A stretch of 45,522 bases of DNA from an uncultured bacterium (GTDB lineage: Bacteria; Joyebacterota; Joyebacteria; Joyebacterales; Joyebacteraceae). Within the stretch, counting starts at the first letter, position 1, and each line of letters starts with the position of its first letter. A program made the position numbers and the translations under genes. The notes under the pieces were generated by a model. It made no database searches and was not told the origin of the DNA. It saw only the letters and a list, made by a program, of their open reading frames with translations. The stretch is taken from NCBI GenBank assembly GCA_964562405.1, contig CAZLTC010000003.1, positions 7,036 to 52,557 of the forward strand, written 5' to 3'. Positions 3,701-34,820 of the stretch are shown here, one piece after another.

Positions 3701-3714
3701 GGCCAGAGGATGCT

Positions 3715-4281: not shown

Positions 4282-4825
4282 CTACACCGGCGGCGAACGA
4301 CCCGACCGGGCAAGGATCGAGATCGACCGGACGCCGATGATGATAATGCTGGTCCTGATCGTCGTCGCGGTGGTCCAGTTCGCCCACTACTACGCCAAGC
4401 TGCCGGAAACGCTCGCCACGCACTTCAACATGGCCGGGCAACCCAACGGCTGGACCGGCAGGGCCGGGTTCATCGCAACGATGGGCGCCATAGAGGCATT
4501 CTTCGTGATCGGCGCGTTCCTGTTCACGAGGTTCGCCGCGAGGATCCCGACGAGCGCGCTCAACATTCCAAACAGGGACTACTGGATGGAGCCCGCGCGC
4601 CGGAGCGACAGCCTGAAGTTCGTCTGGAGCCACATTCTCTGGATCGAGACGATCACGCTGGCGTTCCTGATCGTTGTCGCCGAGGTCGTCTTCCGGTCCA
4701 ACCTCACCGGGGGCACGCCCGCGCTCCCGGGTGACTTCTTCTATGTCCTGGTGGTCTTCGTCGTGACGATCGGCTGGCTGGCCATCCGCATCCTCTTGAG
4801 GTTCAGAAGGCACGGACTGGACTAG
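4268..4825 (+). CDS. DUF1648-domain membrane protein
   Basis: YAKLPETLATHFNMAGQPNGW motif, NIPNRDYW, about 4 hydrophobic helices. Confidence 0.75.
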   Translation: METRDYTGGERPDRARIEIDRTPMMIMLVLIVVAVVQFAHYYAKLPETLATHFNMAGQPNGWTGRAGFIATMGAIEAFFVIGAFLFTRFAARIPTSALNIPNRDYWMEPARRSDSLKFVWSHILWIETITLAFLIVVAEVVFRSNLTGGTPALPGDFFYVLVVFVVTIGWLAIRILLRFRRHGLD

Positions 4826-4833
4826 ACGACCAC

Positions 4834-5829
4834 TCAGCCTTCCCTTATGCGGACGTCTCCGTCGCTCGTCCTGACGCGCAGACTGCCGCTGCCTCCGCGC
4901 ACCCGGCCCGAGGCCATGTGGTCGTCCTTCATGTAGTCCTGAGGTTCCGGAACGTCGATGCTCACACGCCCGTCATCGGTCTTCACGCGGAACGAGTAGG
5001 AGCTTCCGGCCGGCATCGATACAGTGACATGTCCGTCGTCCGTCTCGATATCGACGTCCTTGACCTCGCCCGAGCTGATCCCGACATCCACGTCGCCGTC
5101 GGCCGCGCGCACGCGTACGGAGCCCGCGTCGGCGAGACCCAGCGATACATCGCCGTCGTCGACCGAAACGTCGAAGCTGCCTCTCGAGTCGCTGACGCTG
5201 ATGTCTCCGTCCTGGAGATCGAGCTTCGCGATCAGAGGACCGCATCCGGACAGGCGTACATCGCCGTCGTCTCCCGACAACCGCAGCTCGCCCGACAGGC
5301 CGATCACGGTGACATCGCCGTCGTTCGTCGAGACGCTCGTACTTGCGGCGGCAACGTCGTCGAGCAGCACATCGCCGTCGCTGACTGAGCAGTCGATCTC
5401 GGCACGCCAGTCCGCGATCTCGACGTCGCCGTCGTCCCCGTCGATCTCGAGCTTGACCCACGCGGGCGCCTTGATGGTGTACGTGTACTCGTAGATGCGG
5501 ATGGACTGGAACATCGAGGGGCCGCTCGGCAACATGTGCCCCACGACGCTGACGACGTTCTCGCCGAGCTCGAACTCCACGTCGAAGTCGGGGTCCTCTC
5601 CCACGCCGAGGCGGGTAACGTCGGCACGGCAGCGGACGGCCACGTCTATGACGTTCTTGTCCCACGGGGTTATCGTGACGTCCCCGTCACCGCTGTGAAG
5701 CTCCAGACGGAAACCCTCGCTGACATCGAAGCTCTGATGAAAGTCCCGGTCGATGCTGGTCGCCCTGGAGGGCGTGGAGACGACCCCGAGCATTGCGAGA
5801 GCCATGACTGCTACAAATGCACCGTTCAT
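4834..5829 (-). CDS. Exported DUF4097 family beta-strand repeat protein
   Basis: Signal peptide MNGAFVAVMALAMLG; many xxDGDVxV repeats; GGGAGG RBS. Confidence 0.8.
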   Translation of the reverse strand: MNGAFVAVMALAMLGVVSTPSRATSIDRDFHQSFDVSEGFRLELHSGDGDVTITPWDKNVIDVAVRCRADVTRLGVGEDPDFDVEFELGENVVSVVGHMLPSGPSMFQSIRIYEYTYTIKAPAWVKLEIDGDDGDVEIADWRAEIDCSVSDGDVLLDDVAAASTSVSTNDGDVTVIGLSGELRLSGDDGDVRLSGCGPLIAKLDLQDGDISVSDSRGSFDVSVDDGDVSLGLADAGSVRVRAADGDVDVGISSGEVKDVDIETDDGHVTVSMPAGSSYSFRVKTDDGRVSIDVPEPQDYMKDDHMASGRVRGGSGSLRVRTSDGDVRIREG

Positions 5830-5902
5830 CTCACGACCTCCCTGCGGAATGGGACTGTGACCTGACGCACTTAGCGGCCCGGATTGGCTCGTACACAAAC
5901 TG

Positions 5903-5930
5903 AGACACCCGCGGACGGGTGATGGTTTCC
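5903..5930 (-). promoter_or_regulatory. Possible ECF-sigma promoter upstream of DUF4097 gene
   Basis: GGAAAC-N17-TGTCT (AAC-N18-GTC spacing). Confidence 0.35.
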
Positions 5931-5949
5931 TCAGGGCATCAACTAGCGC

Positions 5950-5978
5950 TTCACCGCAGCCTGAGGCCGTGATAGCAT
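5950..5978 (+). promoter_or_regulatory. Possible sigma70 promoter for oligoendopeptidase
   Basis: TTCACC-N17-TAGCAT with TGn extension. Confidence 0.4.
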
Positions 5979-6019
5979 TGATTCTCAGCAACCTGAACAG
6001 GAATCGAGGAGGTGCGCGC

Positions 6020-7837
6020 ATGGCGGAAGCAAAGGGCAACCTGCCCCACTGGGATCTCTCGAACGTGTACGGCGGGCTCGACGCAGCCGACTTCAAGGCC
6101 GACTTCGAGCTGCTCAAGGGCTACCTTGACAAACTGGAGAAATATGAACAGGCGCACGGGATAGGCAAGCTCGAGGCGCCGCCCGGAGATCCGGCTGCAA
6201 CCGGGGAGGTTCTGGGTGGCATCCTCGGTATGCTCAACGACACCCTGCTCACACTCTCGACGCTGAACGCCTACGTCTACAGCTTCGTGTCTACCGACTC
6301 GCGCAACACTCTCGCCGCCCGCAGGCAGAGCGAACTCGAGCAGCTTCAGATCCGCTTCCGCAAGGTCTACGTCCCCTTCGAGGCCTGGGTGGGCTCGGTC
6401 GCACCGGTGCTCGACAAGATCGTCGAGACATCTCAGGTCGCTAAGGAACACCGTCTGGCCCTCAAGGACATCGCCGACGAGAGCAAGTTCCGCATGACCG
6501 CGGAGATGGAGGCGCTCGCGTCGGAGCTCGTGATGTCCGGAGGCGGCGTCATGGACAAGCTCCAGGAGCGCGTCACGAGCCAGCTCAAGATGCCGTTCAC
6601 GGACAAGACCGGCAATACCAAGCAGCTGCCGATGACGATGCTGCGCAACCTCGCCAACGACTCAGACCCGGACGTGCGCAAGCGCGCCCACGACGTCGAA
6701 CTCAGAGGCTGGGAGTCGATACGCGAGCCCGTCGCCTTCGCGATGAACGGCGTCAAGGGGACGGCCGTGACGCTAGCCAAGCGGCGAGGCTACGAGGACG
6801 TTCTCCACTGGTCGCTCGAGATGAACAAGATGGACCGAGCCACGCTCGACGCGCTCATGGGCGCGATGAAGGACTCGTTCCCCACCTTCAGGCGTTACCT
6901 CAAGAGCAAGGCCGAGAAGCTCGGTCGTCAGAAGCTCCCGTGGTGGGACATGATGGCGCCGGTCGGCTCGGTGGAACTCAAGTACACGTGGGATGAACTC
7001 AAGGCGTTCGTGGTCGAGCAGTTCGGGACGTTCAGCAGCGAGCTTGCCGACTTCGCGAGGAACGCCTTCGAGCACAACTGGATAGATGCGGAGCCCCGGG
7101 ATGGCAAGATCGGAGGCGCGTTCTGCATGCGCGTCCCCAAGGTCAACGAGTCGCGTGTGATGTGCAACTTCGATGGGAGTTTCGACCAGCTCTCGACGGT
7201 CTCGCACGAACTCGGACACGGGTTCCACAACTACTGCCAGATCGGGCTTCCCATGATACGCGCCGGCTCACCGATGACGCTCGCCGAGACGGCATCCATC
7301 TTCTGCGAGACGCTCGTGACGAACGCGGCCCTTAAAACCGCGAAGCCCGAGGCGCAGCTGGGCATCCTCGAGAACCAGCTCATCAACGCGACGCAGGTCA
7401 TCGTCGATATCTACTCGCGCTTCGTATTCGAGAGCGAGGTCCTGAAGCGGCGCGCGGAGGCAGAGCTGTCGGCCGACGAGTTCTGCGAGATCATGGTGGA
7501 CGCGCAGAAGAAGACCTACGGCGACGGGCTCGACCAAGAGCATCTGCACCCGTACATGTGGCTTCTGAAACCCCACTACTACTCGTGCGACTACAACTTC
7601 TACAACTTCCCATACGCCTTCGGCCTGCTGTTCGGGCTCGGCGTCTACGCTCTCTATCAGAAGGAGGGCGAGGCGTTCATCCCAAGGTACAAGGAGCTGC
7701 TGCGGAGCACGGGTGAGGGCAAGGCCGCCGACCTTGCAGCGAAGTACGACATCGACATCCGTTCACGGGGCTTCTGGGAGGACAGCATCAAGGTGCTCGC
7801 GGCGCAGGTCGACAGATACTGCGAGCTTGAGGGATAG
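6020..7837 (+). CDS. M3 family oligoendopeptidase F
   Basis: LPHWDLS N-terminus, GKIGGAFC, HELGH zinc motif, LAETASIFCE, FYNFPYAFG; GAGGAGG RBS. Confidence 0.93.
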   Translation: MAEAKGNLPHWDLSNVYGGLDAADFKADFELLKGYLDKLEKYEQAHGIGKLEAPPGDPAATGEVLGGILGMLNDTLLTLSTLNAYVYSFVSTDSRNTLAARRQSELEQLQIRFRKVYVPFEAWVGSVAPVLDKIVETSQVAKEHRLALKDIADESKFRMTAEMEALASELVMSGGGVMDKLQERVTSQLKMPFTDKTGNTKQLPMTMLRNLANDSDPDVRKRAHDVELRGWESIREPVAFAMNGVKGTAVTLAKRRGYEDVLHWSLEMNKMDRATLDALMGAMKDSFPTFRRYLKSKAEKLGRQKLPWWDMMAPVGSVELKYTWDELKAFVVEQFGTFSSELADFARNAFEHNWIDAEPRDGKIGGAFCMRVPKVNESRVMCNFDGSFDQLSTVSHELGHGFHNYCQIGLPMIRAGSPMTLAETASIFCETLVTNAALKTAKPEAQLGILENQLINATQVIVDIYSRFVFESEVLKRRAEAELSADEFCEIMVDAQKKTYGDGLDQEHLHPYMWLLKPHYYSCDYNFYNFPYAFGLLFGLGVYALYQKEGEAFIPRYKELLRSTGEGKAADLAAKYDIDIRSRGFWEDSIKVLAAQVDRYCELEG

Positions 7838-7908
7838 GTGAGCCGCGCCGCCGCTCGAAGGCCTGAGCGGCAACTTCGCGTCCCAAAAGACCGAATCAGC
7901 CTCACGAC

Positions 7909-7942
7909 AACAGGGGCGGCTCACCTCGAGCCGCCCCTTGTT
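7909..7942. terminator. Likely bidirectional intrinsic terminator
   Basis: AGGGGCGGCTC / GAGCCGCCCCT inverted repeat with T-containing flanks, between convergent genes. Confidence 0.65.
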
Positions 7943-8001
7943 CATCACATCCAATGCCGTCGGCCTCGCGCGCGGGACTCCCGCCCTCAACGCACCACCG
8001 T

Positions 8002-9888
8002 TCAGCACACCTTAAGAATGACCAGCGTCACATCGTCGGCCTGGATCTCGAGCTGCGAGAAGTCGCGCACCGCCTTGAGGAGAGCCTGGCCTATCTCCTC
8101 CGCCGACTCATTCCGATGCTCGGTCACGATCCTGATGACGTTCCCAAGCTCGAACTCCTCGTCACCGGGGTTCCTCGCCTCAGTCACGCCGTCGGTGTAG
8201 AGGCAGAGCACGTCCCCGGGCGCGAGCTGCTCCTCGGCCACGTCGTACTCCGCGTCGGGGATGAACCCGAGCACGAAGCCACCCTCCTCCAGCTGCCGGC
8301 AGTCCCCGTCCTGCGAAACGAGTATCGGGTTATCGTGCCCGGCGCGGACGTACCTCAAGAGGTGCGTCTCCTTTTCGATGGCGCCCAGGAAGAGCGTCAC
8401 GAACTTGCCGGCGTCGGTGTTGCGGTGGACGAGCCGGTTCAGATTCTGAGCAGTACCCTTGATATCAAAGTCCGGCTGGAACGCGTGGCAGTGGAGCCCT
8501 GCCTGCACGTTCGACATGAGGAGCGCGGCGGGCAGGCCCTTGCCCGAAACATCGGCGATCGTGAAGACGAGCGGTCTGCCTCCGTCGAGGTCGATCACGT
8601 CGTAGTAGTCGCCCGAGACCGCTAGCGAACTCACGTTGATGCCCCAGACGTCCAACCCCTTTACCTCCGGGATCTCGTCGGGGAGGAACCTCTCCTGTGT
8701 CCGACGCGCGGTCTCGAGTTCCTTCCTGACCCGCTCGTTCTCGACGGCCTCCGCGTGCAGCTCCTTCGTCGTCTCTACGTGGTTGCTCACCAGAGCGAAC
8801 GACGCGGAGAAGAGCAGGCTGCCCAGAACGAGTCCGCCCGGAAGGACGATGTCGGCGCGGGCGTGAAGGAAACCGGTCGCCACGAGGCAGGCGGCTATGA
8901 CGCCTATGGCGGTGAACGCCGCGAACGCAGGACGACGCCGCGACATCAGGAGCACGCAGGCGACACACCAGATGACGATCCAGGCGAGCGTTATCGGCCA
9001 CGCGGCGTCCCTTATGGGCGCGCCCCGCAGCAGAGTCTCCGTGATGGCGCCGAGAACGACAACTCCCGGCAGGCCGAACGCCTCGACGCCTCCCCCTATG
9101 TCCTGAAGCCTCGGCACGGTGACGAAGTCGGTCGACGGGTCGTCGACGAGGCCCACGAGCGCGATGCGGCCCTTGACGACTGACAGCGCCTCGGGGTCCT
9201 CGTTGTAGACGTCCTTGTACGACACGACCGGGATCGTAACGTCCATGGACGGGAACTCGATCGGGATGTTGCCCTCAACGTCAACCCCCGCGAGCCTCTC
9301 GGGCAGCGACTCAAGCCCGAGCCTCGTCAGGCGAGAGTCCCTGTCGAATCGCCTCACGGTCCCGTCGGAATCGGTCTGGACGTCCGCCACGAACGCGCCC
9401 TGCGCGGCGGACATCAGGAGCGAGTCGGGCTGGCTCGCCGTCAGGAGCACCGCCGTGTCTCCGGAACGCGCCGACCTGCGCTCCTCACGAAGCGACATCA
9501 CGAGGAACACTTTGCCGGATGCGCGGATGGCGTCGGCGAACCTTGTCGGCGGCTCGTCGAACGTGTCGCCGCCTAAGGACAGGTCGAACACGATCGCGCG
9601 CGCGCCCGCCTTGTCGAGGATCTCGACCATGCGCGCGTGCTTGTCGGTGTGCCTGGACAGAGGAAAGACGGGCGAGTCGAACAGCTGCTCACGCGTCGGC
9701 CTGTCGATGCCGACGACGGCGACCTCCGTCCACGGAGCCACGGGCCGCTTGGAGTGGAAGTAGTTGAAGAAGCGCGCGTCGAGCGGCGCCCAGAAGATGG
9801 GGCGCGCCAGGTATGCGAGCGGTATGAGATAGATGAGAGGGAGCAGGCGTCTGAGCCTGCTCCCGTGGAAGATGCCTCCGAATGTCAC
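8002..9888 (-). CDS. CHASE2 sensor - 3TM - PP2C/SpoIIE (RsbU-like) Ser/Thr phosphatase
   Basis: CHASE2 hallmarks VAVVGID, GARAIVFD, DSDGTVRR, GRIALVG, LPGV; 3 TM helices; PP2C motifs SGDYYD, IADVSGKG, AGH, LYTDGVTEA, DDVTL. GTG start overlaps upstream stop (GTGA). Confidence 0.9.
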   Translation of the reverse strand: MTFGGIFHGSRLRRLLPLIYLIPLAYLARPIFWAPLDARFFNYFHSKRPVAPWTEVAVVGIDRPTREQLFDSPVFPLSRHTDKHARMVEILDKAGARAIVFDLSLGGDTFDEPPTRFADAIRASGKVFLVMSLREERRSARSGDTAVLLTASQPDSLLMSAAQGAFVADVQTDSDGTVRRFDRDSRLTRLGLESLPERLAGVDVEGNIPIEFPSMDVTIPVVSYKDVYNEDPEALSVVKGRIALVGLVDDPSTDFVTVPRLQDIGGGVEAFGLPGVVVLGAITETLLRGAPIRDAAWPITLAWIVIWCVACVLLMSRRRPAFAAFTAIGVIAACLVATGFLHARADIVLPGGLVLGSLLFSASFALVSNHVETTKELHAEAVENERVRKELETARRTQERFLPDEIPEVKGLDVWGINVSSLAVSGDYYDVIDLDGGRPLVFTIADVSGKGLPAALLMSNVQAGLHCHAFQPDFDIKGTAQNLNRLVHRNTDAGKFVTLFLGAIEKETHLLRYVRAGHDNPILVSQDGDCRQLEEGGFVLGFIPDAEYDVAEEQLAPGDVLCLYTDGVTEARNPGDEEFELGNVIRIVTEHRNESAEEIGQALLKAVRDFSQLEIQADDVTLVILKVC

Positions 9889-10790
9889 TCGTCACCCCGA
9901 GCTTCGAGCAGGTCCTCGTAGGCTTGCTTGTACAGGCCGATGTCGGCGAACGCCCTCGCCCGCCACATACGCGCCGAGCGCGACTGCGACGGCGACGCCA
10001 CCGCAGCGTCGAACCTGTAGATGGCCTCCTCGTGAAGGCCCGATGAGAGCAGCAGCACGCCGGCTTCGAGGTCGCCCAGCGTATCTATCGCCTGGTCGAG
10101 CCTCTGCTCCTCGTCCGGCGTCATGACCACGAAGGAGCGCCATCCGGACTCGCCCTCCCAGCCATCAGCGTCGGGCTGCACCTTCCAGACGTACTCCTCG
10201 CCGGGCAACAGCTCCTCGAGCACCGCACCGTTGTCGCGGACGACGCGCGTCATCTCGTCACCGTCGGCCGGCGCCACCGTCAGCACGTAGCTGTCGACGC
10301 CCGGCACTTCACTCCAGAAGAGCCTCGCGTCCTCAGCCCTCACTCGGCCGTCCTGCGCGGGTATCATCTGCGTCGGCGCCTCGGTGGGCAACGCCCAGTC
10401 CCGGACGGTCCGTGTCCGGAGAGGCTGTCTGCGGCTTTCGCCGATCCAGTCGGCAAGCTGCATGCGGACCCACGAGGCCAGATCCCCACCGGCCCCGCCG
10501 CCGCCCGCGAACTGCATCTCGCCCGGTCCCACCAGGTTGAACTCGTCTCCGACCGGAGTGAACCCCGTGCACCTGGATCCCGTCCTGGCGACGACCGTGT
10601 CGCCATCGCGCAGCACCAGCCCCTCGCGCGCCGGCATGTCCCCTTCGCCGCGCTTCACGACCACATCACCGGAGACGGACACGACGAGCCCGCCCGGGGA
10701 TTCGGAGGACCATGCCGCTATGGGCAGGAAGAGACACAGGCAGAAAAGCACGAGCGCCATGTGGAACCTGCGTGACGAAACGAAATGCAT
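9885..10790 (-). CDS. Exported hypothetical protein B (FecR-like N-domain, DUF928/FnIII-like middle, helical C-terminus)
   Basis: Signal peptide; GLVVSVSGDVVVKR...GLVLRDGDTV FecR-like pattern; clear paralog of 10986-11915; AAAGGAGG RBS. Domain names are pattern-based inference. Confidence 0.7.
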   Translation of the reverse strand: MHFVSSRRFHMALVLFCLCLFLPIAAWSSESPGGLVVSVSGDVVVKRGEGDMPAREGLVLRDGDTVVARTGSRCTGFTPVGDEFNLVGPGEMQFAGGGGAGGDLASWVRMQLADWIGESRRQPLRTRTVRDWALPTEAPTQMIPAQDGRVRAEDARLFWSEVPGVDSYVLTVAPADGDEMTRVVRDNGAVLEELLPGEEYVWKVQPDADGWEGESGWRSFVVMTPDEEQRLDQAIDTLGDLEAGVLLLSSGLHEEAIYRFDAAVASPSQSRSARMWRARAFADIGLYKQAYEDLLEARGDE

Positions 10791-10799
10791 GCTGCCTCC

Positions 10800-10835
10800 T
10801 TTGGGGGACTGCTGCTCTTTGGGGACTGCTGCTCT
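10800..10835. repeat. Tandem 17/18-bp direct repeat abutting an RBS
   Basis: GGGGACTGCTGCTCT at 10804-10818 and 10821-10835. Confidence 0.9.
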
Positions 10836-10870
10836 CGTCAGAGCCCGGCGCGGGTCTTCGACCGCGCATT

Positions 10871-10908
10871 CATAGACAATTACAAGCCACGGGCGCTGCA
10901 GGTTCGAA
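10871..10908 (-). promoter_or_regulatory. ECF-type promoter-like motif, copy 2
   Basis: TTCGAACCTGC-N12-TTGTA-N6-TATG; identical blocks and spacing to 12001-12038. Confidence 0.6.
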
Positions 10909-10985
10909 GGAATGCCGGGCCCGCAGGCCGATCTCAAGCCCGCCGGCGGCCCCTCCGATGCCCCTCGCTCCCGGAGCGACCTCCG

Positions 10986-11915
10986 CTACTGCGTCGGCTC
11001 GGCCTCGTTCCGGCTCCTGACCAGGTCTTCGTAGGCGTCGTGATAGAGCCCTATCTCGGCCATCGTCTGAGCGCGCCACTTCCGGGCGGACGCTCCCTGG
11101 CTCGCGGACGCCACCGCGGCGTCCAGCCGGTAGGCCGCCTCCTCGTGCAGGCCGGCCGACAGAAGCAGCACGCCGGCCTCGAGGTCGCTCATCGCGGAGA
11201 CCGCGGCGTCGAGCCCGTCCTCCTCCTCGGGGAGCATGACGCGGAACCCGCGCCACTTGGACTGACCGGTCCAGCCCTCGAGCGCCGGCATGACCTTCCA
11301 GACATACTCGCGCCCTGGGACCAGATCATCCGCGATCAGCCTGTGACCCCTTACGCTCCGGCTCGTCTCCTCGCCATCCTCGGACACGAACGTCACCAGA
11401 TACCGATCGATGCCGGGCACCGTCCCCCAGTAGAAGACGGCGCTGTCGGGGCGCACCTGGCCGCCGGGCGCCGGGATGATGGGCGCCGGCGTAAGCGTCT
11501 CGACCTCCCAGTCACGCTTGAGAGTGCGGGTGACGATGGGCTGCCGTCTGCTCTCGCCGATCCACTGCGTGAGCTGGCGACGTACCCAGAGCGTGACCCG
11601 GTCGAGCATGCCGTCGACCTCGGACCTGGCCAGACGGAGCTCGCCTGGACCGGGCAGGTCGAACGGCTCGCCCGACGGCGTGAAGCCTGTGCAGCGGGCG
11701 CCATCAGAAGCGCGGACGATGTCTCCATCCTGGAGGACAAGGCCCTCGGTCACGGGCTCGTCACCATCTGGACGCTCTACGATCACGTCGCCCCGCACGG
11801 ACACGACAACGCCCGAGGACGGGGCCGTCGGTGCGCCGTTCGCAGGCTCGGCCGCCACCACAGACGGTCCGGCGACGATGAGCCCGACGGTCATGCATAG
11901 GAGAACGTATCTCAT
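10986..11915 (-). CDS. Exported hypothetical protein A (paralog of protein B)
   Basis: Signal peptide MRYVLLCMTVGLIVAG; GVVVSVRGDVIVER...GLVLQDGDIV; shares CTGFTP, WIGESRRQP, YVWKV and DLEAGVLLLS with B; CAGGAGG RBS. Confidence 0.7.
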   Translation of the reverse strand: MRYVLLCMTVGLIVAGPSVVAAEPANGAPTAPSSGVVVSVRGDVIVERPDGDEPVTEGLVLQDGDIVRASDGARCTGFTPSGEPFDLPGPGELRLARSEVDGMLDRVTLWVRRQLTQWIGESRRQPIVTRTLKRDWEVETLTPAPIIPAPGGQVRPDSAVFYWGTVPGIDRYLVTFVSEDGEETSRSVRGHRLIADDLVPGREYVWKVMPALEGWTGQSKWRGFRVMLPEEEDGLDAAVSAMSDLEAGVLLLSAGLHEEAAYRLDAAVASASQGASARKWRAQTMAEIGLYHDAYEDLVRSRNEAEPTQ

Positions 11916-12000
11916 ACGCCCTACCTCCTGAATGCCCGCTGCCGCAGTGCGGCGGAGTGCCACGCTCACGATGCTACCTCACACGGGCGGGATTCCCAAC

Positions 12001-12038
12001 CATAATGAACTACAATCAACGAGGAGGGCAGGTTCGAA
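12001..12038 (-). promoter_or_regulatory. ECF-type promoter-like motif, copy 1
   Basis: TTCGAACCTGC-N12-TTGTA-N6-TATG about 86 nt upstream of the protein A start. Confidence 0.6.
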
Positions 12039-12095
12039 CAAACAAGTGGCCCGCCACGGGACAGGCGGGCAGGAGCCTCGACCGTTCGCAGGACG

Positions 12096-15000
12096 CTAGT
12101 TGCGCTCCCCTATGAGGACGAACGCGGACCAGAAGTACGGGTGTTCGTATGGGTGGTAGCCTTCTTCGTCGGTGTACGAGCGAAGCCAGGCCTTGGCCTC
12201 GCGGAGCGCGTCGGCCTTGCTCATTCTGAGGCCCGGTTCACCGCCGCGCTCGTCGGTGTAGGCCCCGAGCCTGTTCTCGTAGAACCGGCGCATGAGAAGC
12301 GAGGTTGCCGTGTCCTCGACCTTCCAGAGGCTCACGAGCATGCCGCGAGCGCCGGCCTGAAGGAACGCGTGGGCGAACCCTATGTACCCCTCGCCGACGA
12401 CCTCCTTGCCGAGGGCTGTCTCGCACGCGGAGAGCGTCACGAGGTCGCAGTCCAGACTCCACTCGCGAACGATCTCGCCCGCCGTCAGGAGCCCGTCGTA
12501 GATGCGACGGCCGGCCAGCGCAGACTCGAGCGGGTCTGGAAGCCCGACCTGCGACAGCACGAGAGCCGACTGATCCGGCCGTTCATCGTCGACCAGCGCG
12601 TGAGTCGCCAGGTGGATGATGCCATAGTCGCGGAGCGCATCCTCCGAAGCCAGCTCCACAAGCTCCTGCTCGGTGGCGTCCGGGCCCAGCAGCACCGTGG
12701 CGTCGTCAGACAGGGACGAAAGCGACAGGACCTCGGCCCTCGAACCGAGCAGGCGCGGCAGCCCGTCGACCGAGGCGCGCTGGGTTCCGGCGCCCCGTTC
12801 GGCTCCCCGCACGCCGTCGGCGTCGGGTGCACGACCATCGCGTTGCCCATCCTCAAGCTCCATCGCATCGAGGTCCGCCTCGGTGAACGGAGGATCGCCC
12901 ACGAGCAGCATCGCGTCGGTCCTGCCCGCACTCTCACCGCGTTCCTCGAGCCAGGCGTAGACGGTGGCCGACGGCGCGTAGGAGACCGCGAACCTGTCCC
13001 CGACGAGGACACCGTCCGCATCGACGAGCGTCTCGATGGGAAGCCCAAGCACCGCTCCCGACGGCAGGACGACCAGCTCCGCGGCTCCATCGAGCGCGGA
13101 TGCGAGCGGCTCCAGGCGCTCGCGCCAGAGCGCCCGCGCGTCCCTGGAGAGCCCCGCGCCGGAAGACGACGGGTCGGAGAGCTGCTCGCGGTACTTCCCG
13201 TATTTCCTCTGAATCGACCGCACGGTCGCGCCGGAGGTGCTCCCACAACGTGCCCACGCGACCGATCCGCTGTTTCTGATCACGTAGCCCCACGACTCGA
13301 CGTTGCCGTCCCCCACGTCGGCGTCTATCCATCCAACGATGGCCGTGGCCTTGTCCAACACGCTCTGTATCCGCTCCAGCGGGAACAGGTGTCCCTCAGT
13401 CACGGGATGCGACTCAGCAAGCCTGGCCTGGAAGACGCTCCAGTCGGCCTCGGTCTCGAGCAATCTGTGCCGCGTCTCCTCGGCAAGCCGCGCGGTCTCT
13501 CCCGTCGTGTCCGACGCCGCCGCGTCCGCGTAGGCGGCGAGTTCGCCATCCAACTCCGCCAGGGCCGACCTCAGAGAATCCTCGCGCGCAGACTCCGCGG
13601 GAGAGAGCACGCGCTCCTCCGCTGTCATGAGCAGGTCCGCGAGCGTGCGCGCCAGGGCTCTCTCCGCCGCCGGCCACGCGTCGTCGATCTTGCCCTGCTC
13701 GAGGCGAGAAACCGCCAGCGCGACGAGCGGCGGCCGGAGCCTGAGCGCCATCGTGGCGCTCGACATTCCTGCGCCCGCACGCAGCCTGGCCGCGTCATAC
13801 GTCGTCGCGGCCTCCATCAGCGTCTGCTCGGCCGCGGCCGCGTCGCCCTCTCGCAATTCCAGATGCCCGATGCTGCTCAGGTTGTACGCCACCGCCGCGC
13901 TCTGCGTGCCCAGCGCCCGCGAGCGGATATCGAGCGCCTCGCGGTAGAGCGCAAGCGCTTCGTCCAGCCTGCCGACCTCCTCAAGGAGAGACGCCAGGTT
14001 CGAAAGGTCGGTGGCCACCTCAACGTGGTCGCTCCCCAGGAGCTCGCGGTGCATCGCGAGCGCCTCTCTGTAGAGCGGCTCGGCCTCCTCGTACTTGCCC
14101 GCGGCCTGAAGCGCATGGGCGAGCCCGGTAAGGCTGACCGCAACCTCGGGGTGTCGGTCGCCGAAGGCCTTGCGCCGGATCTCCAGCGACTCACGGAAGA
14201 GCGGCTCCGCTCCAGCGTAGTCGCCCTCGCTCTCCAGCGTGTGCGCGAGATTGTGGAGCGCGAACGCGAGGTCGGGGTGGTCGTTGCCGAGCGTGGCGCG
14301 ATAGATCTCGACCGCCTGCCTGTGAAACTCCTCGGCCTCCGAGTACTCGCCGCGGGCCGCTAGAAGAGCCCCCATGTTGCTCAACGAGAGCGCGACGTAC
14401 GGATGCTCATTCCCAAGCACGGCCTGCCAGATAGCAGTCGACCTGCGCAGGAACGGCTCGGCCGCGGCGTAGTCCATCCTGTCGTAGTAGAGGCTCGCCA
14501 GAGCGTTGAGGCTCGAAGCAACGTCTGGGCTCTCCTCTCCCAGCGCGGCCCGCCGCACCTCGAGCGCGCGTAGCAGGTCGCGCTCAGCCTCGGGGTAGTC
14601 TCCGAGACGCTGGAGGAGCATCCCAAGATTGGCGGTGATGGCGGCGACGTTGAGGTCGTCCTCCCCAAGCGCGTCGGTCAGGATGTCGAGGCCCTCGGTT
14701 ATGTCCTCCTTGGCCTTCTCGAGGTCTCCCGTGGCTTCGTAGAGCATGCCGAGGTTGTTGAGCGTGGCGCCGACGTACGCGTGGTCGGGACCCAACAGCT
14801 CGCGCCTGACGTCGAGGGCATCCAGGAACAGCGGCTCGGCCTGTTCGTACTCGCCGCCGTACTGCAGGAGCGACGCCAGCTCGTCCTCGGCTGCGGCCGT
14901 GGCGAGATGTCTGTTCCCGAAGTGCTTCCTGTACAGCGCCAGACGCCCGCGCGCGGCCTCCGCCCCCTCCTCGTATGACCCCTGCATCCAGGACTCCTCC

Positions 15001-15398
15001 ATGGCAACGCCCAGGCTGTCTGCCCGCGCCAGCTCGGCCCGCGCGCCCTCCGGAAGACCGGCGGCGAACTGGAGCGTCTCGACTAGCTGCCGCGTATCCT
15101 CGACGTCCAGCACCGTAGCCTCTGCCTCGCCCCTCACAACCTCCAGTAGCTCGTTCGCCAGGGCCGCCGCGCCCGTGTAGTCGCCTGCCAGGCGCAGCCC
15201 CATGATCCTCTGCGAGAGAGCGTCCGGATCGGCGCACGTCGAGGCGCCGTCAGGCTCGACGGAGATGGAATCGGCGGCCGCGCCCTCCGACTCCACAGCG
15301 ACACGCTCGTCCGAGCCCACGGATGCGCACGGGGCAAAGAAGATGAGCGCGGCGACGGCAGCCGTCGCCGCGACGAAGGTCCGGGGTCGTGGCGTCAT
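12096..15398 (-). CDS. TPR-CHAT caspase-like protease 2
   Basis: N-terminal signal-like helix; about ten 42-aa HPxVAxSLNNLA-type TPR repeats; catalytic IHLATHA (His) and LSACETALG (Cys); LVSLWKV; HPYFWSAF. Confidence 0.92.
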   Translation of the reverse strand: MTPRPRTFVAATAAVAALIFFAPCASVGSDERVAVESEGAAADSISVEPDGASTCADPDALSQRIMGLRLAGDYTGAAALANELLEVVRGEAEATVLDVEDTRQLVETLQFAAGLPEGARAELARADSLGVAMEESWMQGSYEEGAEAARGRLALYRKHFGNRHLATAAAEDELASLLQYGGEYEQAEPLFLDALDVRRELLGPDHAYVGATLNNLGMLYEATGDLEKAKEDITEGLDILTDALGEDDLNVAAITANLGMLLQRLGDYPEAERDLLRALEVRRAALGEESPDVASSLNALASLYYDRMDYAAAEPFLRRSTAIWQAVLGNEHPYVALSLSNMGALLAARGEYSEAEEFHRQAVEIYRATLGNDHPDLAFALHNLAHTLESEGDYAGAEPLFRESLEIRRKAFGDRHPEVAVSLTGLAHALQAAGKYEEAEPLYREALAMHRELLGSDHVEVATDLSNLASLLEEVGRLDEALALYREALDIRSRALGTQSAAVAYNLSSIGHLELREGDAAAAEQTLMEAATTYDAARLRAGAGMSSATMALRLRPPLVALAVSRLEQGKIDDAWPAAERALARTLADLLMTAEERVLSPAESAREDSLRSALAELDGELAAYADAAASDTTGETARLAEETRHRLLETEADWSVFQARLAESHPVTEGHLFPLERIQSVLDKATAIVGWIDADVGDGNVESWGYVIRNSGSVAWARCGSTSGATVRSIQRKYGKYREQLSDPSSSGAGLSRDARALWRERLEPLASALDGAAELVVLPSGAVLGLPIETLVDADGVLVGDRFAVSYAPSATVYAWLEERGESAGRTDAMLLVGDPPFTEADLDAMELEDGQRDGRAPDADGVRGAERGAGTQRASVDGLPRLLGSRAEVLSLSSLSDDATVLLGPDATEQELVELASEDALRDYGIIHLATHALVDDERPDQSALVLSQVGLPDPLESALAGRRIYDGLLTAGEIVREWSLDCDLVTLSACETALGKEVVGEGYIGFAHAFLQAGARGMLVSLWKVEDTATSLLMRRFYENRLGAYTDERGGEPGLRMSKADALREAKAWLRSYTDEEGYHPYEHPYFWSAFVLIGERN

Positions 15399-15414
15399 GG
15401 ACTGAGCTTCCTCC

Positions 15415-18400
15415 CTAAGACCGGTCCCCGATCAGCACGAACGCCGACCAGTAGAATGGATGATGGTACGGACGCCGGCCGGCCTCGTCCGCGTAGTCCC
15501 GAAGCCAGAGCTTGGCCTCCCTGAGCGCGTCGGCTTTCGCCATCGGTGCCGCGTCTGAACCGAACAGGTTCGCGTAGAACCGACGCATGAGCATCGAGGT
15601 AGCACGGTCCTCCACCTTCCACAGGCTGACCAGCATGCTGCGCGCGCCCGCCTGCATGAATGCGTGTGACAGACCGATGTAGCCCTCACCTCCGGCCTCG
15701 CGCCCGAGCGCTGTTTCGCATGCCGATAGAGTAACAAGGTCGGCGCTCAGGTTCCACCCTCTGACGATCTCCCGGGCGGTCAGGACGCCGTCGCAGACGC
15801 GCCGCCCCTCGGCCGCCGCCACGACCGGGTCGGGAAGGTCCTCCTGCGACAGCACGAGCGAGGACAGTCCGGGCACGCGGTCGTCAACGTGCGCGTGCGT
15901 GGCGAGATGCACGATGCTCAGCTCGCCCAGGCGTCCCGAATCCGACAGCTCCTGTAACGCGGTCTCCGAGGCGTCGGCACCGAGAAGCACGAGCGGGTCG
16001 TTGACCACCTCTTCGATGGCGAGCACCTCATCGCGGCTCCCCGCGAGCCGCGGGAGCTTCCCCAGGAACGGAGGGTCGCCCAGGAGGAGAGAGCCGCGGC
16101 GACCCGAGACCCTCGTGTCGCGAGACCTGAGCCACGCGTACAGGGTGCACGACGGGACGTACGACATGGAGTAGCTCTCGCCCAGCGGCGCTCCGGCGTC
16201 CGCCACGAGCGCCTCCAGGGGCACCCCAAGCGATGGTCCCGAGGGGATCACCACGAGGTTCCGGACGCCAGCGAGCGCCTCCATGAGAGGTGCGAACCTG
16301 GCCTTCCAAAGCTCCGCCGCGTCGAGCTTGATGCCGAGCTCGGTCGATTCCGGATCGGACAGCTCTCGCGCGAATGCGGCGAAGACACTCTCCGTCGTCG
16401 AACCGGACCCTTCCGGCGGACCAAGGTGCACCCAGAAGACCGGACCGTCGTCTCGGACCACGTAGCCCCACGACTCCTGGGCGCCACGCCCGTGCTCGAC
16501 GTCGATCCACCCGACGATCGCGATCTTGGAGTCGAGCGCACGCTGGACCTCAGAAAGCCCCAGAGCGCTCCCTCCCGTGACCGGATGCCTCTCCGACATC
16601 TCACGCTGGAAGGCGCTCCAGTCTGCCTCTGCATCCAGAAGCCTGGTGCGCGCCACTGCGGCGGACACCCGCGCGACGGCCGAATCGCCGGAGGCCCCGC
16701 TCAGACGGTACGCGGAGAACTCCGCCTCGCAGTCCGCAAGCACGCTTCTCAAGGACTCCTCACGGGCCGACTCGGTCCCGCTCAGGTCGCGGACCGACGC
16801 CTCGGTAAGAAGGTCCGTGAGCGTTCTGGCCAGCGCCTTCTCTGCTGCGGGCCAGGCCTCGTCAATCTTGCCGAGACCCAGTTTGACCTCTGCGAGGTCT
16901 GCATACGGACTGTCAAGGAACGTCGCGCGGGAGACGCCGGTGCCCACGCGGAGCCGCGCTGCGTCGTAGACCGCACAGGCCCTCTCGAGCACCGGCTCGG
17001 CCCCCTCGTAGTCACCGCCGGCCTTCAGCGACACTCCCAACCTGTGCAGCGTGGCCGCGACGTGCGGGTGCTCCTGGCCCAGAACTGAACGGCGGATGTC
17101 GAGCGAGCGGCGGTAGAGCGAGTCCGCCGCGGAGTAGTTCCCAGTAAGGTACCTGACCTCAGCCAGCGTAAAGAGGTTCGTCGCAGTGTCCGGGTGACGC
17201 TTGCCCAGAAGCGCGGTCCTCATTTCGAGAGCCTCCGTCAACGTCGCGAGGGCGGCGTCGAGGTCGCCCTTCGCCTTCTGGAGAACTCCCAGATTGTAGA
17301 GGCTCGATGCCACGATCGGGTGTTCGCCGCCGAAAAGCCTGCGGCGCATCGCGAGCGCCTGTTCGTAGAGCGGCTCCGCGCCAACGTAGTTGTCCTGCGC
17401 GTAGAGCGTGGCCGCCAGATTGTTCAGGCTCTGGGCGACGTCGGGATGCTCGTCGCCCAGCACCGATCGTCGGAGAGCGAGCGCCTCGCGGAACAGGGGC
17501 TCCGCCTCTCCGTAACTCCCCTGAGAATAGAGAAAGGCCGCGAGGTTGTTGACGCTCTGGGCGACCGCGGGATGGCCCTCACTGAGCCGGCGACGCCTGA
17601 CGGCCAGCCCGGCCCTGTAGAGCGGTTCGGCGGCGGCGTAGTCCCCGCGGTCCTTCAGCACCGCGGCGAGCGCGTTCATGGCCTCCGCGGCCTCCAGGCT
17701 ATCGTCGCCGAACTCGCCGCGGCGGACCGCGAGAACCTCTCTATAGAGAGGCTCCGCGCCCGCGTAGTCCCCGCGAGCCCGTCTGACGCCGGCCAGGTTG
17801 AGGAGACACGAGACCGTCACCGGGTCGCTCTCGCCGAACGCCGCGGTCAGGAGCCCCAGCGCCTCCTGCAGAAGCGCCTCCGCCGCCTCGTAGTCTCCCT
17901 GCGAGTAGCGCAGCGATGCAGCGTTGTTGATCGCGAGCGCCACCTCAGGATGTCCCTCTCCCAGAGCCGCGCGCTTGAGCTCCAGCGACTCCCTGAAGAG
18001 AGCCTCGGCGCCGGGAAGGTCTCCCCCGGCGGCAGTGAGAGCAGCGAGGTTGTTGAGCGTCGTCGCAACCTCATAGTGGTCGGGTCCGAGCACGCTCCGG
18101 CGCAGTCCGAGTTCCCTCTCGAGCACCTCCGCGCCGTCCGAGAAGCGGCCGGCGCCCCAGAGGACCTCCCCCTCACGCGCCAGGCTGTCGGCCCGCGCCA
18201 GCAATGCCCGCTCTTCCTCGGGCAGTGCCGATGCGAACCTCATCGTCTCGAGCACGCGCTCCGCATCCTGAACCTCGTAGTCGGCGACCAGCGAATCGGC
18301 GCGAACGATCTCAACGATCTCGGCCGCCAGCTCGGCCGCGGACGAGAAGTCCCCCTCTACCCTGAGGACCTCTATCCTGTCCTCAAGGGCGGAGCGGTCC

Positions 18401-18486
18401 TCCAATGTGTCGTCGGAGGCGCAGGCGAGCGCGGAGACGCACACCAGGACCACTACGATGATCTGGCGGGTCGCATTCGTTACCAT
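15415..18486 (-). CDS. TPR-CHAT caspase-like protease 1
   Basis: Signal peptide (possible ALAC lipobox); about ten TPR repeats; VHLATHA and LSACETALG catalytic motifs; HPFYWSAF. Confidence 0.92.
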   Translation of the reverse strand: MVTNATRQIIVVVLVCVSALACASDDTLEDRSALEDRIEVLRVEGDFSSAAELAAEIVEIVRADSLVADYEVQDAERVLETMRFASALPEEERALLARADSLAREGEVLWGAGRFSDGAEVLERELGLRRSVLGPDHYEVATTLNNLAALTAAGGDLPGAEALFRESLELKRAALGEGHPEVALAINNAASLRYSQGDYEAAEALLQEALGLLTAAFGESDPVTVSCLLNLAGVRRARGDYAGAEPLYREVLAVRRGEFGDDSLEAAEAMNALAAVLKDRGDYAAAEPLYRAGLAVRRRRLSEGHPAVAQSVNNLAAFLYSQGSYGEAEPLFREALALRRSVLGDEHPDVAQSLNNLAATLYAQDNYVGAEPLYEQALAMRRRLFGGEHPIVASSLYNLGVLQKAKGDLDAALATLTEALEMRTALLGKRHPDTATNLFTLAEVRYLTGNYSAADSLYRRSLDIRRSVLGQEHPHVAATLHRLGVSLKAGGDYEGAEPVLERACAVYDAARLRVGTGVSRATFLDSPYADLAEVKLGLGKIDEAWPAAEKALARTLTDLLTEASVRDLSGTESAREESLRSVLADCEAEFSAYRLSGASGDSAVARVSAAVARTRLLDAEADWSAFQREMSERHPVTGGSALGLSEVQRALDSKIAIVGWIDVEHGRGAQESWGYVVRDDGPVFWVHLGPPEGSGSTTESVFAAFARELSDPESTELGIKLDAAELWKARFAPLMEALAGVRNLVVIPSGPSLGVPLEALVADAGAPLGESYSMSYVPSCTLYAWLRSRDTRVSGRRGSLLLGDPPFLGKLPRLAGSRDEVLAIEEVVNDPLVLLGADASETALQELSDSGRLGELSIVHLATHAHVDDRVPGLSSLVLSQEDLPDPVVAAAEGRRVCDGVLTAREIVRGWNLSADLVTLSACETALGREAGGEGYIGLSHAFMQAGARSMLVSLWKVEDRATSMLMRRFYANLFGSDAAPMAKADALREAKLWLRDYADEAGRRPYHHPFYWSAFVLIGDRS

Positions 18487-18580: not shown

Positions 18581-19333
18581 TCAGGAACGCCCGCGGTGTT
18601 TGGCCACGACGATGATGTTCTCGCTGGAGTCGGTGTATGAGGAAAGATCGAAGTCGCCGTAGAGGTTGCTGATCTCGAGGCCTGCGTACTCGAACGCTTC
18701 CTCGATCGCCTCGACGGTCACGACGGCGCCGCTGTCGCTCTCCTTGATGGTGACGATCGAGGTCCTGCCTGGGATGTGTTCCTTGAAGAGCAGATCGTAC
18801 GAGACGGTGTCCGTCGCTTCGTCGTAGGTCTGGGCGATGAAGCGTATAACGATGCGGCCCCCGGCAAGCTCCCGCCTCTCGGGACCGAGGACCCTGGTCT
18901 GTCTCAGGGCGGACGGCGACGCGATGTCAAAGGCGAAGACGCCGTCCTCGGCCAGATGCCTGGCCGCGTTGTGGAATATGCCGCGCAGGTCGTCGACCGT
19001 ACCTGCCTGCACCGCTCCCGACGCCGAGTAGACGAACCCGAACTCCTCCTCGAGATCGAACGACAGCATGTCCGCCAGGAGCAGTCTGCAGCGACCGCTG
19101 ACGTCGGCGTACAGCTCGCGGCGCTTGCGCTTTGCCTCGCGCAGCATGGCGATCGAGTTGTCGATCCCCACCACGTCCCTACGCAGGTTCGCGATCTCGA
19201 GGAGCACGCGACCGGTGCCCACGCCCAACTCCAGGACCTTCCCGGTGGTCCGGCCGGCGAGGTCCAGGTAGAACTGCAGGTTGCCCTTCGTGTCGAAGCT
19301 GTCGTAGTACTCCGCCGTGTCATCGTAGCCCAT
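18581..19333 (-). CDS. Class I SAM-dependent methyltransferase
   Basis: AEYYD, VLELGVGTGR motif I, GIDNSIAML, ADM; GGAGGGG RBS. Confidence 0.88.
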   Translation of the reverse strand: MGYDDTAEYYDSFDTKGNLQFYLDLAGRTTGKVLELGVGTGRVLLEIANLRRDVVGIDNSIAMLREAKRKRRELYADVSGRCRLLLADMLSFDLEEEFGFVYSASGAVQAGTVDDLRGIFHNAARHLAEDGVFAFDIASPSALRQTRVLGPERRELAGGRIVIRFIAQTYDEATDTVSYDLLFKEHIPGRTSIVTIKESDSGAVVTVEAIEEAFEYAGLEISNLYGDFDLSSYTDSSENIIVVAKHRGRS

Positions 19334-19508
19334 GTGCTCCCCTCCACGCAGTCCTCTCCAGAATAGCACTTTGCCGAAGGACATTCACCATCTTCGCCAG
19401 TGTGCCGCTCTCGACAGCAACGGTCTGGGATTGTACGCTCTTCGATATCGACTGGCCAACAACATGCTGAGGCGTCCTTCATGAACATAGCACGGAGGTG
19501 AGAAGCAA

Positions 19509-24605: not shown

Positions 24606-24621
24606 CGGACTCTCCACCCCC

Positions 24622-26166: not shown

Positions 26167-26169
26167 CGG

Positions 26170-27523: not shown

Positions 27524-27582
27524 CTAGCGTCTCCCGCCTCTCGCCCATCCATGGAAGTACCACGTCAAAGAAACGTCTTCTG

Positions 27583-29478: not shown

Positions 29479-29495
29479 CTCTCTACCCCCGGAGA

Positions 29496-31097: not shown

Positions 31098-31150
31098 TGT
31101 CTCGTCACTCCCCTGGCCGTAACCGTGCGGTCAGCGCGGCAGGCTCGCCC

Positions 31151-31564: not shown

Positions 31565-31585
31565 TCGTTCACCGCTCCGTTCGAT

Positions 31586-34792: not shown

Positions 34793-34820
34793 GTCGGTTA
34801 ACCTCTCAAGCGAGAAGCCC

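Follow-up and report, generated by a model that had tools for sequence, protein, structure and literature searches.

A recurrent gene set for exported TPR-CHAT proteins, structurally MtxA-like partners and a CHASE2-PP2C receptor, and its probable role as an envelope-sensing module

We analyzed a stretch of 45,522 nucleotides from an uncultured bacterium of the Joyebacterota (assembly GCA_964562405.1, contig CAZLTC010000003.1; hereafter the window) and, within it, five genes that encode two tetratricopeptide repeat (TPR)-CHAT proteases (CHAT1 and CHAT2), two exported proteins that we call the partners (P3 and P4), and one receptor phosphatase with a CHASE2 sensor and a PP2C output. The window is a high-GC (~65%) chromosomal stretch, and the genome to which it belongs comprises 2.65 Mb in 139 contigs and is 94.65% complete. 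The nearest relatives of the window DNA are records labelled Candidatus Eisenbacteria, and the sequencing runs that contain this DNA are mostly labelled salt marsh metagenome, with no RNA runs among those listed. A first-pass annotation made from the sequence alone had placed five co-oriented genes at 8002..18486, and a map of the open reading frames (ORFs) agreed with it exactly: all five lie on the minus strand, flanked by genes for a peptidase M3 (5969-7837, +) and a methyltransferase (18581-19384, -). The features of the locus are given below, with sizes in amino acids (aa).

15415..18486, minus strand: CHAT1, 1023 aa, exported TPR-CHAT caspase-fold protease, possibly a lipoprotein; CHAT domain at ~15424-16320 (Pfam, hydropathy).
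12096..15398, minus strand: CHAT2, 1100 aa, exported TPR-CHAT protease; CHAT domain at ~12105-13142 (Pfam, hydropathy).
10986..11915, minus strand: P3, 'upstream' type of the MtxA-like partner, 309 aa from the ATG at 11915; the ORF (10986-11969) opens with the GTG at 11969.
11613..11825, minus strand: P3 N-domain (residues 31-101), predicted small beta-sandwich like the LapA/MpIBP retention module, or plug (AlphaFold2 model).
11517..11615, minus strand: P3 linker (residues ~101-133), a predicted helix followed by a low-confidence stretch; candidate protease or binding site (AlphaFold2 model, conservation).
11001..11489, minus strand: P3 FN3 domain (residues 143-226) and TPR-like helical domain (residues 229-305), the half that resembles the MtxA C-terminal part (PDB profile, 4Z29 superposition).
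9885..10790, minus strand: P4, 'downstream' type of the MtxA-like partner, 301 aa from the ATG at 10790; the ORF (9885-10937) opens with the TTG at 10937.
8002..9888, minus strand: CHASE2-3TM-PP2C receptor phosphatase, 628 aa; CHASE2 at ~8953-9804, transmembrane (TM) cluster at ~8776-8997, SpoIIE/PP2C at ~8008-8574.

The likely ATG starts of P3 and P4 were chosen from the conserved N-termini of their relatives. CHAT1 and CHAT2 are 16 bp apart, while gaps of 126-195 bp separate CHAT2, P3, and P4. At the other end of the block, the GTG start of the receptor gene overlaps the TGA stop of P4 (GTGA, 9885-9888), in agreement with the translational coupling that had been predicted. A GC-rich hairpin (7 pairs, weak T tail) lies at 12049-12070 on the minus strand, 26 bases past the CHAT2 stop, and may set the transcription of the two CHAT genes apart from that of the partners and receptor. 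The promoter and terminator scan gave counts that are not above shuffles, with 3 hairpins against 3.6 expected.

The gene set is not confined to the window. Using a profile of the partner family on contigs from one genome per species, we found 84 stretches that matched the pattern, of which 12 were confirmed as loci (L001-L012); their genomes are labelled Eisenbacteria, Krumholzibacteriota, Effluviviaceae, or just 'bacterium'. Searches by tblastn with the window proteins, together with ORF maps, revealed the order CHAT, partner, CHASE2-PP2C in all 12 loci, and this order was kept down to 41-49% partner identity. The receptor gene comes next after the partner in 10 of the 12, the contigs of L006 and L008 ending just past the partner. 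Likewise, CHAT precedes the partner in 10 of the 12; the contigs of L009 and L012, which start 841 and 446 bases ahead of the partner match, gave no CHAT hit there, and the genomes of these two loci each have 7 CHAT matches on other contigs.

The three parts also occur together across the phylum. Among 31 genomes, the partner was found in 10 (7 of the 20 high-quality genomes), and the same 10 had CHASE2 over the cut-off and long TPR-CHAT matches (E<=1e-47, frames of ~450-1300 aa). One further, sub-threshold CHASE2 match was seen in genome G014. The remaining 21 genomes had no partner, no CHASE2 over the cut-off, and no long TPR-CHAT. An unrelated short CHAT protein (~500 aa), present in most of the 29 CHAT-positive genomes, lies outside this linkage pattern. 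Since the 31 genomes are kin, their co-occurrence is to be read as a pattern and not as a statistical test. In the genome of the window, the only CHASE2 gene (that of the receptor), both partner genes, and both long CHAT genes are all located at this locus.

These data bear on the simplest alternative, namely that the genes are neighbours without a shared function. The wide gaps around P3 and the hairpin after CHAT2 would suit such an arrangement, though the hairpin count is not above chance. It would have to be reconciled, however, with a fixed order in 12 of 12 loci that spans the Eisenbacteria, Krumholzibacteriota, and Effluviviaceae labels and distant partner sequences, with the 10 of 10 versus 0 of 21 phyletic pattern of the three parts, and with the coupling of P4 to the receptor, and we regard it as highly improbable. 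It is likely that CHAT, partner, and receptor work as one module, and the five genes are probably a real, conserved, and previously uncharacterized envelope-sensing module, a variant of the MtxA/CHASE2 theme with a PP2C output and duplicated components.

Both proteases carry an array of TPR_12/TPR_10 repeats N-terminal to the CHAT domain. In CHAT1, Pfam identified TPR_12 (6.5e-91) and CHAT (PF12770; 3.4e-65, 220.8 bits against a cut-off of 24), and the repeats are kinesin-light-chain-like; in CHAT2, TPR_12/TPR_10 are followed by CHAT (5e-60, 203.8 bits against a cut-off of 24). CHAT2 is the type kept in every close relative, with orthologues 65-79% identical in L001-L004. The His/Cys dyads, read as intact at first pass, are indeed so: H860, H864, and C923 (CHAT1 numbering) are invariant in the 11 aligned CHAT proteins of the window and the loci, as are the His motif vHlATHa and the Cys motif LSAC. 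One of the two histidines, H860 or H864, is presumably the catalytic one. The invariance of the dyad and of the surrounding blocks in 11 of 11 proteins argues for catalysis. A search of the PDB by sequence with the CHAT half (E<=10) gave only chance rows and nothing relevant, and PADLOC returned a generic TPR match alone and no membership in a defence system.

Export of the CHAT proteins, the other property claimed for them, was also supported. Each of the 11 proteins has one N-terminal hydrophobic segment that resembles a signal peptide, as called with a hydropathy script rather than SignalP; in the CHAT and the partner proteins alike, these segments have basic residues before them and small, then acidic, residues after them. 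The segment of CHAT1 ends in ...SALAC, a possible lipobox, and the N-terminus of CHAT2 fits a lipobox poorly. The CHAT orthologue of L011 has a PG_binding_1 domain (6.4e-15) ahead of its TPRs, which is independent evidence of a periplasmic location.

Between its GDPPF and LPRLPGSR blocks, the CHAT domain can have a variable, acidic, low-complexity insert (alignment columns ~1327-1385; ~12560-12760 in CHAT2). This insert occurs in CHAT2 and most orthologues, is absent from CHAT1 and from the L010 protein, and may be a regulatory or a self-cleavage loop.

The anti-sigma factor DdvA is the only characterized periplasmic TPR-CHAT protein, and proteolysis has been proposed for it (PMC11506125). The same source has the DdvA dyad in a resting state and proposes autoproteolysis in trans. 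If the TPR-CHAT proteins of the locus behaved likewise, they would be sensors or scaffolds that cut themselves or nothing, the partners would merely bridge them to CHASE2, and the acidic insert could be the self-cleavage loop. We consider this very unlikely: the dyad and its surrounding blocks are invariant in 11 of 11 proteins, and neither a membrane anchor nor an anti-sigma domain was found in the CHAT proteins by Pfam or hydropathy.

P3 and P4 are paralogues, 52% identical, as had been recognized, and their predicted export agrees with the single N-terminal signal-peptide-like segment found by hydropathy in 30 of 30 aligned members of the partner family. Their description as FecR/DUF928-like, on the other hand, could not be upheld. 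When P3 and P4 were compared with all of Pfam-A by hmmscan at E<=10, only fn3, TPR_16, and ANAPC3 were listed, and at E<=0.01 no Pfam domain was found save a weak TPR_16 in P4. FecR (PF04773) was without a match in P3 and P4 at E<=10, its only hit in the genome of the window is unrelated (1.54), and none of the 31 phylum genomes has it; DUF928 was absent from the same hmmscan at E<=10. FecR-named chains were absent among the fold matches listed for the N-domain model, by which the fold itself is not excluded.

The partner family comprises ~94 clusters, none of which has a Pfam domain. A profile search of 1.84 billion representatives recovered full-length relatives of ~300 aa, along with many giant proteins that match only positions ~140-230, repeatedly, in repeats that Pfam names fn3. 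Six distant relatives belong to clusters whose members are named only 'hypothetical protein'. Against the PDB, the partner profile matched fibronectin (1.6e-8) and tenascin-R (2.4e-5), and a distant relative gave only weak FN3/TPR rows by sequence.

The fold of the partners was examined with AlphaFold2. The P3 model has a predicted local distance difference test score (pLDDT) of 82.6 and a predicted template modelling score (pTM) of 0.71, and it divides into a confident beta region (residues 33-95), a low-confidence region (101-133) with a helix at 104-119, an FN3 domain (143-226), and five helices (229-305). The top match of this model was 4Z29, the MtxA protein of Magnetospirillum, both with Foldseek (E 1.6e-8, TMt 0.70, root mean square deviation (rmsd) 3.7, 173 columns) and with VIA-align (Z 14.6, rmsd 2.9, 156/169 residues), which placed model residues 142-306 on residues 137-305 of the chain. 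No PDB entry other than 4Z29 spans the two C-terminal domains of P3; the next rows cover the TPR part alone (Z<=11.9). MtxA is described as a protein of 313 aa in which a signal peptide precedes an N-terminal beta region, a Big/FN3 domain, and a TPR domain, and the gene directly after mtxA encodes a CHASE2 adenylate cyclase (PMC4439547). The partners are MtxA-like by gene context as well as by architecture and predicted structure. The fold prediction that the first-pass annotation had called for thus gave a C-terminal half like MtxA (4Z29) and, as set out below, an N-domain like 5IX9.

The mature partners have a single cysteine, which in P3 is Cys75 (~11691-11693), within the CTGF motif of the N-domain, and in P4 is its equivalent. 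This residue is at least 90% conserved among 30 family members. A lone conserved periplasmic cysteine hints at a disulfide between molecules, which could, for instance, join the two paralogues or link a partner to some other component.

When the N-domain was modelled alone from 18 window and locus sequences, pLDDT rose to 91.8 and one structure stood out. This was 5IX9, named 'cell surface anchoring domain' (VIA: Z 9.5, rmsd 2.0, 66/76 residues, with the next row at Z 4.0; Foldseek: TM 0.78/0.74, E 0.049). 5IX9 is the N-terminal domain of MpIBP and served as the template for modelling LapA's retention module, which in LapA is followed by a flexible region containing a helix needed for LapG binding and a TAAG site at which LapG, a periplasmic cysteine protease, cleaves (bioRxiv 10.1101/198937). 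By sequence, the NCBIfam model retention_LapA (NF033682) weakly matched 13 of the 30 partner members at E<=0.1 (best 1.4e-4), and no other NCBIfam model matched more than one of the 30. The N-domain profile gave 0 matches in the PDB, and in a word-limited search of longer proteins all 52 matches fell in the same ~300-aa family, with no other architecture.

The linker that follows the N-domain is both conserved and poorly modelled. Its mean conservation is the highest of five defined regions of the partner (3.15 vs 2.71-3.11), its motif WIGESRRQP (residues 118-126, nucleotides 11538-11564) is the sixth most conserved 9-mer, and pLDDT in P3 is below 50 at residues 101-103, 106-108, and 114-133. 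Such conservation combined with a low-confidence fold is as expected for a linear recognition or cleavage motif, and the kinesin-light-chain-like TPRs might recognize the near-invariant R-D-W residues of the linker. In MtxA, trypsin trimmed the protein to delta1-141 (PMC4439547), and by analogy this cut is at the same hinge as the P3 linker. A LapG-type protease (Peptidase_C93) was not found in the genome of the window, so that CHAT is the sole dedicated periplasmic cysteine protease seen beside the partners. Because the layout of N-domain and linker mirrors the LapG cleavage region of LapA, it would indirectly favour cleavage of the partner by CHAT, and we tentatively suggest, as a proposal somewhat short of an even chance, that the linker is the substrate of the CHAT protease.

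The receptor has the CHASE2-3TM-PP2C architecture first read from it. Pfam identified CHASE2 (PF05226; 1.9e-23, 83.8 bits against 26.3) and SpoIIE (PF07228; 2.7e-48, 164.9 bits against 25), and hydropathy placed three TM-like segments between them at residues 298-316, 323-341, and 347-365; the N-terminal hydrophobic stretch after RLRR scores below the 1.6 threshold. Across 26 receptor sequences, D446 of the PP2C domain is invariant and D427, D430, D566, D618, and D619 are at least 90% conserved. These acidic residues fall in the DVSGKG, TDG, and DD motifs, and we take them to bind metal. Most of 63 receptor relatives combine CHASE2 with SpoIIE, and two have a histidine-kinase output. In these two metagenomic relatives, P0299 and P0300, the sensor is kept (48-49% identical over residues 25-320) and joined to a histidine-kinase ATPase domain, to which P0299 adds HisKA. 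The swap of outputs on a conserved sensor supports CHASE2 as the input and an outside-in direction of signalling.

This direction matters for a second alternative, in which the locus would be an inside-out or release device of the Lap kind: the receptor would hold the protease or the partner, proteolysis would free the FN3/TPR body, and the main output would be extracytoplasmic. In the Lap system, the inner-membrane receptor LapD controls the periplasmic cysteine protease (bioRxiv 10.1101/198937), and the retention-module-like N-domain with its flexible linker would fit this arrangement. The cytoplasmic domain of our receptor, however, is a PP2C with its catalytic motifs kept and not a ligand-binding module, the histidine-kinase swap in relatives is typical of outside-in sensors, and the partners are small Sec substrates without adhesin repeats. 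We therefore judge a release device to be quite unlikely.

An RsbU-type output, as proposed at first pass, is plausible, given the kept acidic motifs and the presence elsewhere in the genome of 3 STAS proteins, 1 RsbW-like kinase, and 5 SpoIIE phosphatases. One STAS gene is beside the RsbW-like kinase gene (contig C28), a second is upstream of a gene for an extracytoplasmic function (ECF)-type sigma factor (C49), and the third is on C6. At the C49 site (L018, G000:C49, 1591-2458), a 95-aa STAS protein is encoded directly upstream of the ECF-type sigma factor (Sigma70_r2 + r4_2) and a 252-aa protein of no family; this STAS/ECF pair is a possible partner-switching target of the five SpoIIE phosphatases of the genome.

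A second CHASE2-SpoIIE receptor (690 aa, CHASE2 2.7e-50) was seen in a relative (L014, G007:C173:4000-19000, at 3005-14656). Its neighbours are two Reg_prop beta-propeller proteins of ~1000 aa with FlgD_ig tails and two TPR proteins, with no CHAT and no MtxA-like partner, so that CHASE2-PP2C genes occur in at least two kinds of neighbourhood in the phylum.

The number of genes for each part varies from locus to locus. Two CHAT genes, two partners, and one receptor are found in the window and in L003; one CHAT gene with two partners and one receptor in L001, where a methyltransferase gene is directly upstream, and in L007, where a giant surface protein is encoded upstream; and one of each in L010 and in L011, the latter with an additional divergent CHAT/C25-like gene on the other strand. 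In a maximum-likelihood tree of 20 partner sequences, the 'upstream' type of P3 and the 'downstream' type of P4 formed two well-supported clades shared with L001-L004, while the partner pair of L005, L006, and L007 arose from a separate duplication (clade support 98/94). The partner has been duplicated at least twice independently. Two partners thus seem to have been repeatedly favoured, perhaps as a heterodimer, and their number does not track that of the proteases. The notion that the 2+2+1 layout reflects two protease-substrate pairs does not survive this comparison, since the copy numbers of CHAT and partner vary independently (1+2, 2+2, and 1+1). Apart from its partners, L007 (61-5451) has, like L006 (117-6410), a gene for a giant exported protein (1796 and 2097 aa, respectively) directly upstream of CHAT on the same strand, with Big_9, cadherin-like, beta-helix, and NIDO domains and a FlgD_ig tail. 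This could be a surface protein tied to the module or a mere neighbour.

We propose the following mechanism. The MtxA-like protein would be a periplasmic partner of the CHASE2 domain, as a co-receptor or a tethered ligand, and the kinesin-light-chain-like TPRs of the CHAT protease would read a cue. CHAT would then cleave the partner within its conserved linker, where the plug-like N-domain gives way to the FN3/TPR body, as LapG cuts LapA immediately behind the retention module. The cut would change what CHASE2 binds and thereby switch the PP2C, which would act by partner switching, dephosphorylating an anti-anti-sigma protein of the STAS type whose gene lies outside the locus. Taken as a whole, from the partner on CHASE2 through the CHAT cut and the PP2C switch to the STAS target, this scheme is tentative and could fail slightly more readily than hold. 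It keeps the export, dyads, recurrence, and plausible PP2C output of the first-pass interpretation and gives up the FecR/DUF928 label and the two pairs. A more general form of the idea is rather unlikely: that a CHAT cut at the conserved hinge behind a LapA-type plug is the signal read by CHASE2, so that plug and cleavable linker would have been re-used for transmembrane signalling and not for adhesin release, and that both the protease family (CHAT here) and the output (PP2C, kinase, or cyclase) are interchangeable.

The MtxA-like proteins could instead be stable co-receptors of CHASE2, with CHAT acting on a foreign or envelope protein to yield a peptide ligand, or on the receptor itself. CHASE2 ligands are called unknown in PMC5192318 and PMC10581220, with one exception: the CHASE2 cyclases of Sinorhizobium meliloti respond to a protein signal of the plant (uL2), sensed via the outer-membrane protein NsrA (PMC13001267). 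A protein ligand would be in keeping with stable co-receptors, as would long TPR arrays, which suit the capture of protein ligands, and a CHAT copy number that is independent of the partner copy number. Moreover, the receptor at G007:C173, with its TPR and beta-propeller proteins and no CHAT, implies that CHASE2 can work with other exported partners. What stable co-receptors leave unexplained is why the flexible linker should be among the most conserved parts of the partner and why the N-domain should resemble a module that precedes a protease site; the restriction of long TPR-CHAT genes to genomes with a partner also speaks against them. On balance we find this alternative unlikely.

Several observations weigh against our proposed mechanism, at the level of the genes, the folds, and the signalling. 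The terminator-like hairpin after CHAT2 and the 126-195 bp gaps make a single transcript less certain, and in L009 no CHAT is encoded in the 841 upstream bases, with 7 long CHAT matches located on other contigs. 4Z29 is absent from the HMMER matches at E<=10, whether the family profile or a distant member was the query. The likeness to the retention module is drawn from a 66-residue match of a predicted fold and from sub-threshold sequence matches: the retention_LapA score, at 18 bits, is far under the cut-off of 50, and 6 of 14 control genomes likewise gave weak matches, so that the sequence signal can do no more than corroborate the fold. The TAAG dialanine site is absent from P3 and P4, and, with Sec-type signal peptides and no type 1 secretion system (T1SS) adhesin, the Lap analogy is structural only. 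Neither in the window nor in the related loci does the gene set have a linked STAS or RsbW gene. Finally, in the only relatives that have been tested, deletion of mtxA gave no phenotype (PMC4439547), and the FecR-domain protein SMc02177 of S. meliloti was dispensable for signal perception (PMC5498481).

If the mechanism is true, CHASE2 would sense a protein that the cell itself encodes and processes by proteolysis. Cleavage of the partner by CHAT would explain a widespread class of receptors and extend caspase-like proteolytic signalling to the bacterial envelope, where there is no free periplasmic TPR-CHAT protease with a known substrate. Should the idea of CHAT cleavage fail, the locus would still be a conserved accessory sensing module of Eisenbacteria-like bacteria. 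In either case, it joins CHASE2, MtxA-like proteins, and free periplasmic TPR-CHAT proteases in a small genome with a single CHASE2 gene.

Elsewhere in the window, genes at 24379-32524 (together with 2248-2817 and 33110-37015) encode a membrane-bound hydrogenase/Mrp-like complex with two Proton_antipo_M proteins, MbhD/MbhE, a Complex1_49kDa/NiFeSe large-subunit-like protein, and NADHdh (NuoH-like). Genes close by code for a HycI-type maturation protease, a molybdopterin oxidoreductase (formate-dehydrogenase-like), and Fe-S/FAD proteins, and the set looks like an energy-converting unit of the formate-hydrogenlyase or Mbh type. Three consecutive SPFH/Band_7 genes follow at 37081-40835, the last of which (39105-40835, 576 aa) has an N-terminal Cation_efflux (CDF) transporter domain, an unusual fusion.

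The individual parts of the locus have counterparts in several known systems. RsbU, RsbP, and SpoIIE are partner-switching phosphatases. Like them, the receptor has a SpoIIE-family PP2C preceded by a helical linker, and the genome has STAS and RsbW-like genes; unlike them, its input is a periplasmic CHASE2 domain, and the STAS/RsbW candidates are not linked to the locus. In craspase (type III-E), the TPR-CHAT protease Csx29 cleaves Csx30 to free a sigma-factor regulator (cited in PMC11506125). Craspase and the locus share a TPR-CHAT protease with a co-encoded partner, whose cleavage controls transcription in the former and is proposed here to do so, whereas craspase is cytoplasmic and RNA-guided and this locus has no CRISPR context.

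Closer in cellular location is DdvA, also a periplasmic TPR-CHAT protein with a canonical His-Cys dyad, which has been proposed to start by proteolysis a transmembrane signal that ends at a sigma factor. DdvA, however, has a membrane anchor and an anti-sigma domain of its own in the same chain, whereas the proteases here are free exported proteins and the CHASE2-PP2C receptor is separate. On the receptor side, operons that pair a LysM/FecR protein with a CHASE2 histidine kinase ('BiofilmReg') are described for the Burkholderiales and Pseudomonas aeruginosa (PMC5192318), and SMc02177 (FecR) is encoded near cyaD1 in S. meliloti (PMC5498481). As here, an exported accessory protein is found beside a CHASE2 receptor laid out as N-terminal TM, CHASE2, three TM, and output. 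The accessory proteins of BiofilmReg and SMc02177 are true Pfam FecR proteins, in contrast to those of the locus, and no protease is described in those operons. CHASE2/DUF928 neighbourhoods are mentioned for Nostoc (PMC5587647).

The Lap system resembles the locus in the order of its parts: behind a plug-like beta domain (5IX9, Z 9.5) come a helix and a conserved flexible stretch, and the gene of this protein is accompanied by those of a cysteine protease of the periplasm and a receptor of the inner membrane. The protease is a caspase-fold CHAT here and the transglutaminase-like LapG there, and the receptor is a CHASE2-PP2C here and LapD, a cyclic di-GMP-binding GGDEF-EAL protein, there. The T1SS, the RTX adhesin, and the TAAG site of Lap also have no counterpart in the locus.

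In the literature searched, with most subscription journals outside its scope, no description of an exported CHAT together with CHASE2 was found, and the nearest thing is the pair of MtxA and a CHASE2-cyclase, a pair without known function. The mtx cluster of Magnetospirillum and Magnetococcus comprises genes for a Sel1-domain protein, MtxA, and the cyclase, in this order (PMC5088516). Although similarity to MtxA is not detectable by HMMER, the likeness extends to length (313 aa versus 301-309 aa), to the succession of signal peptide, N-terminal beta domain, protease-labile hinge, FN3/Big, and TPR-like domains, and to the position of the gene directly before that of a CHASE2 receptor (in 10 of the 12 loci and the window). 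Where the two depart from each other is in the receptor output, which is a PP2C here and a cyclase in the mtx cluster, and in the composition of the gene set, which here has a duplicated partner and one or two TPR-CHAT genes upstream.

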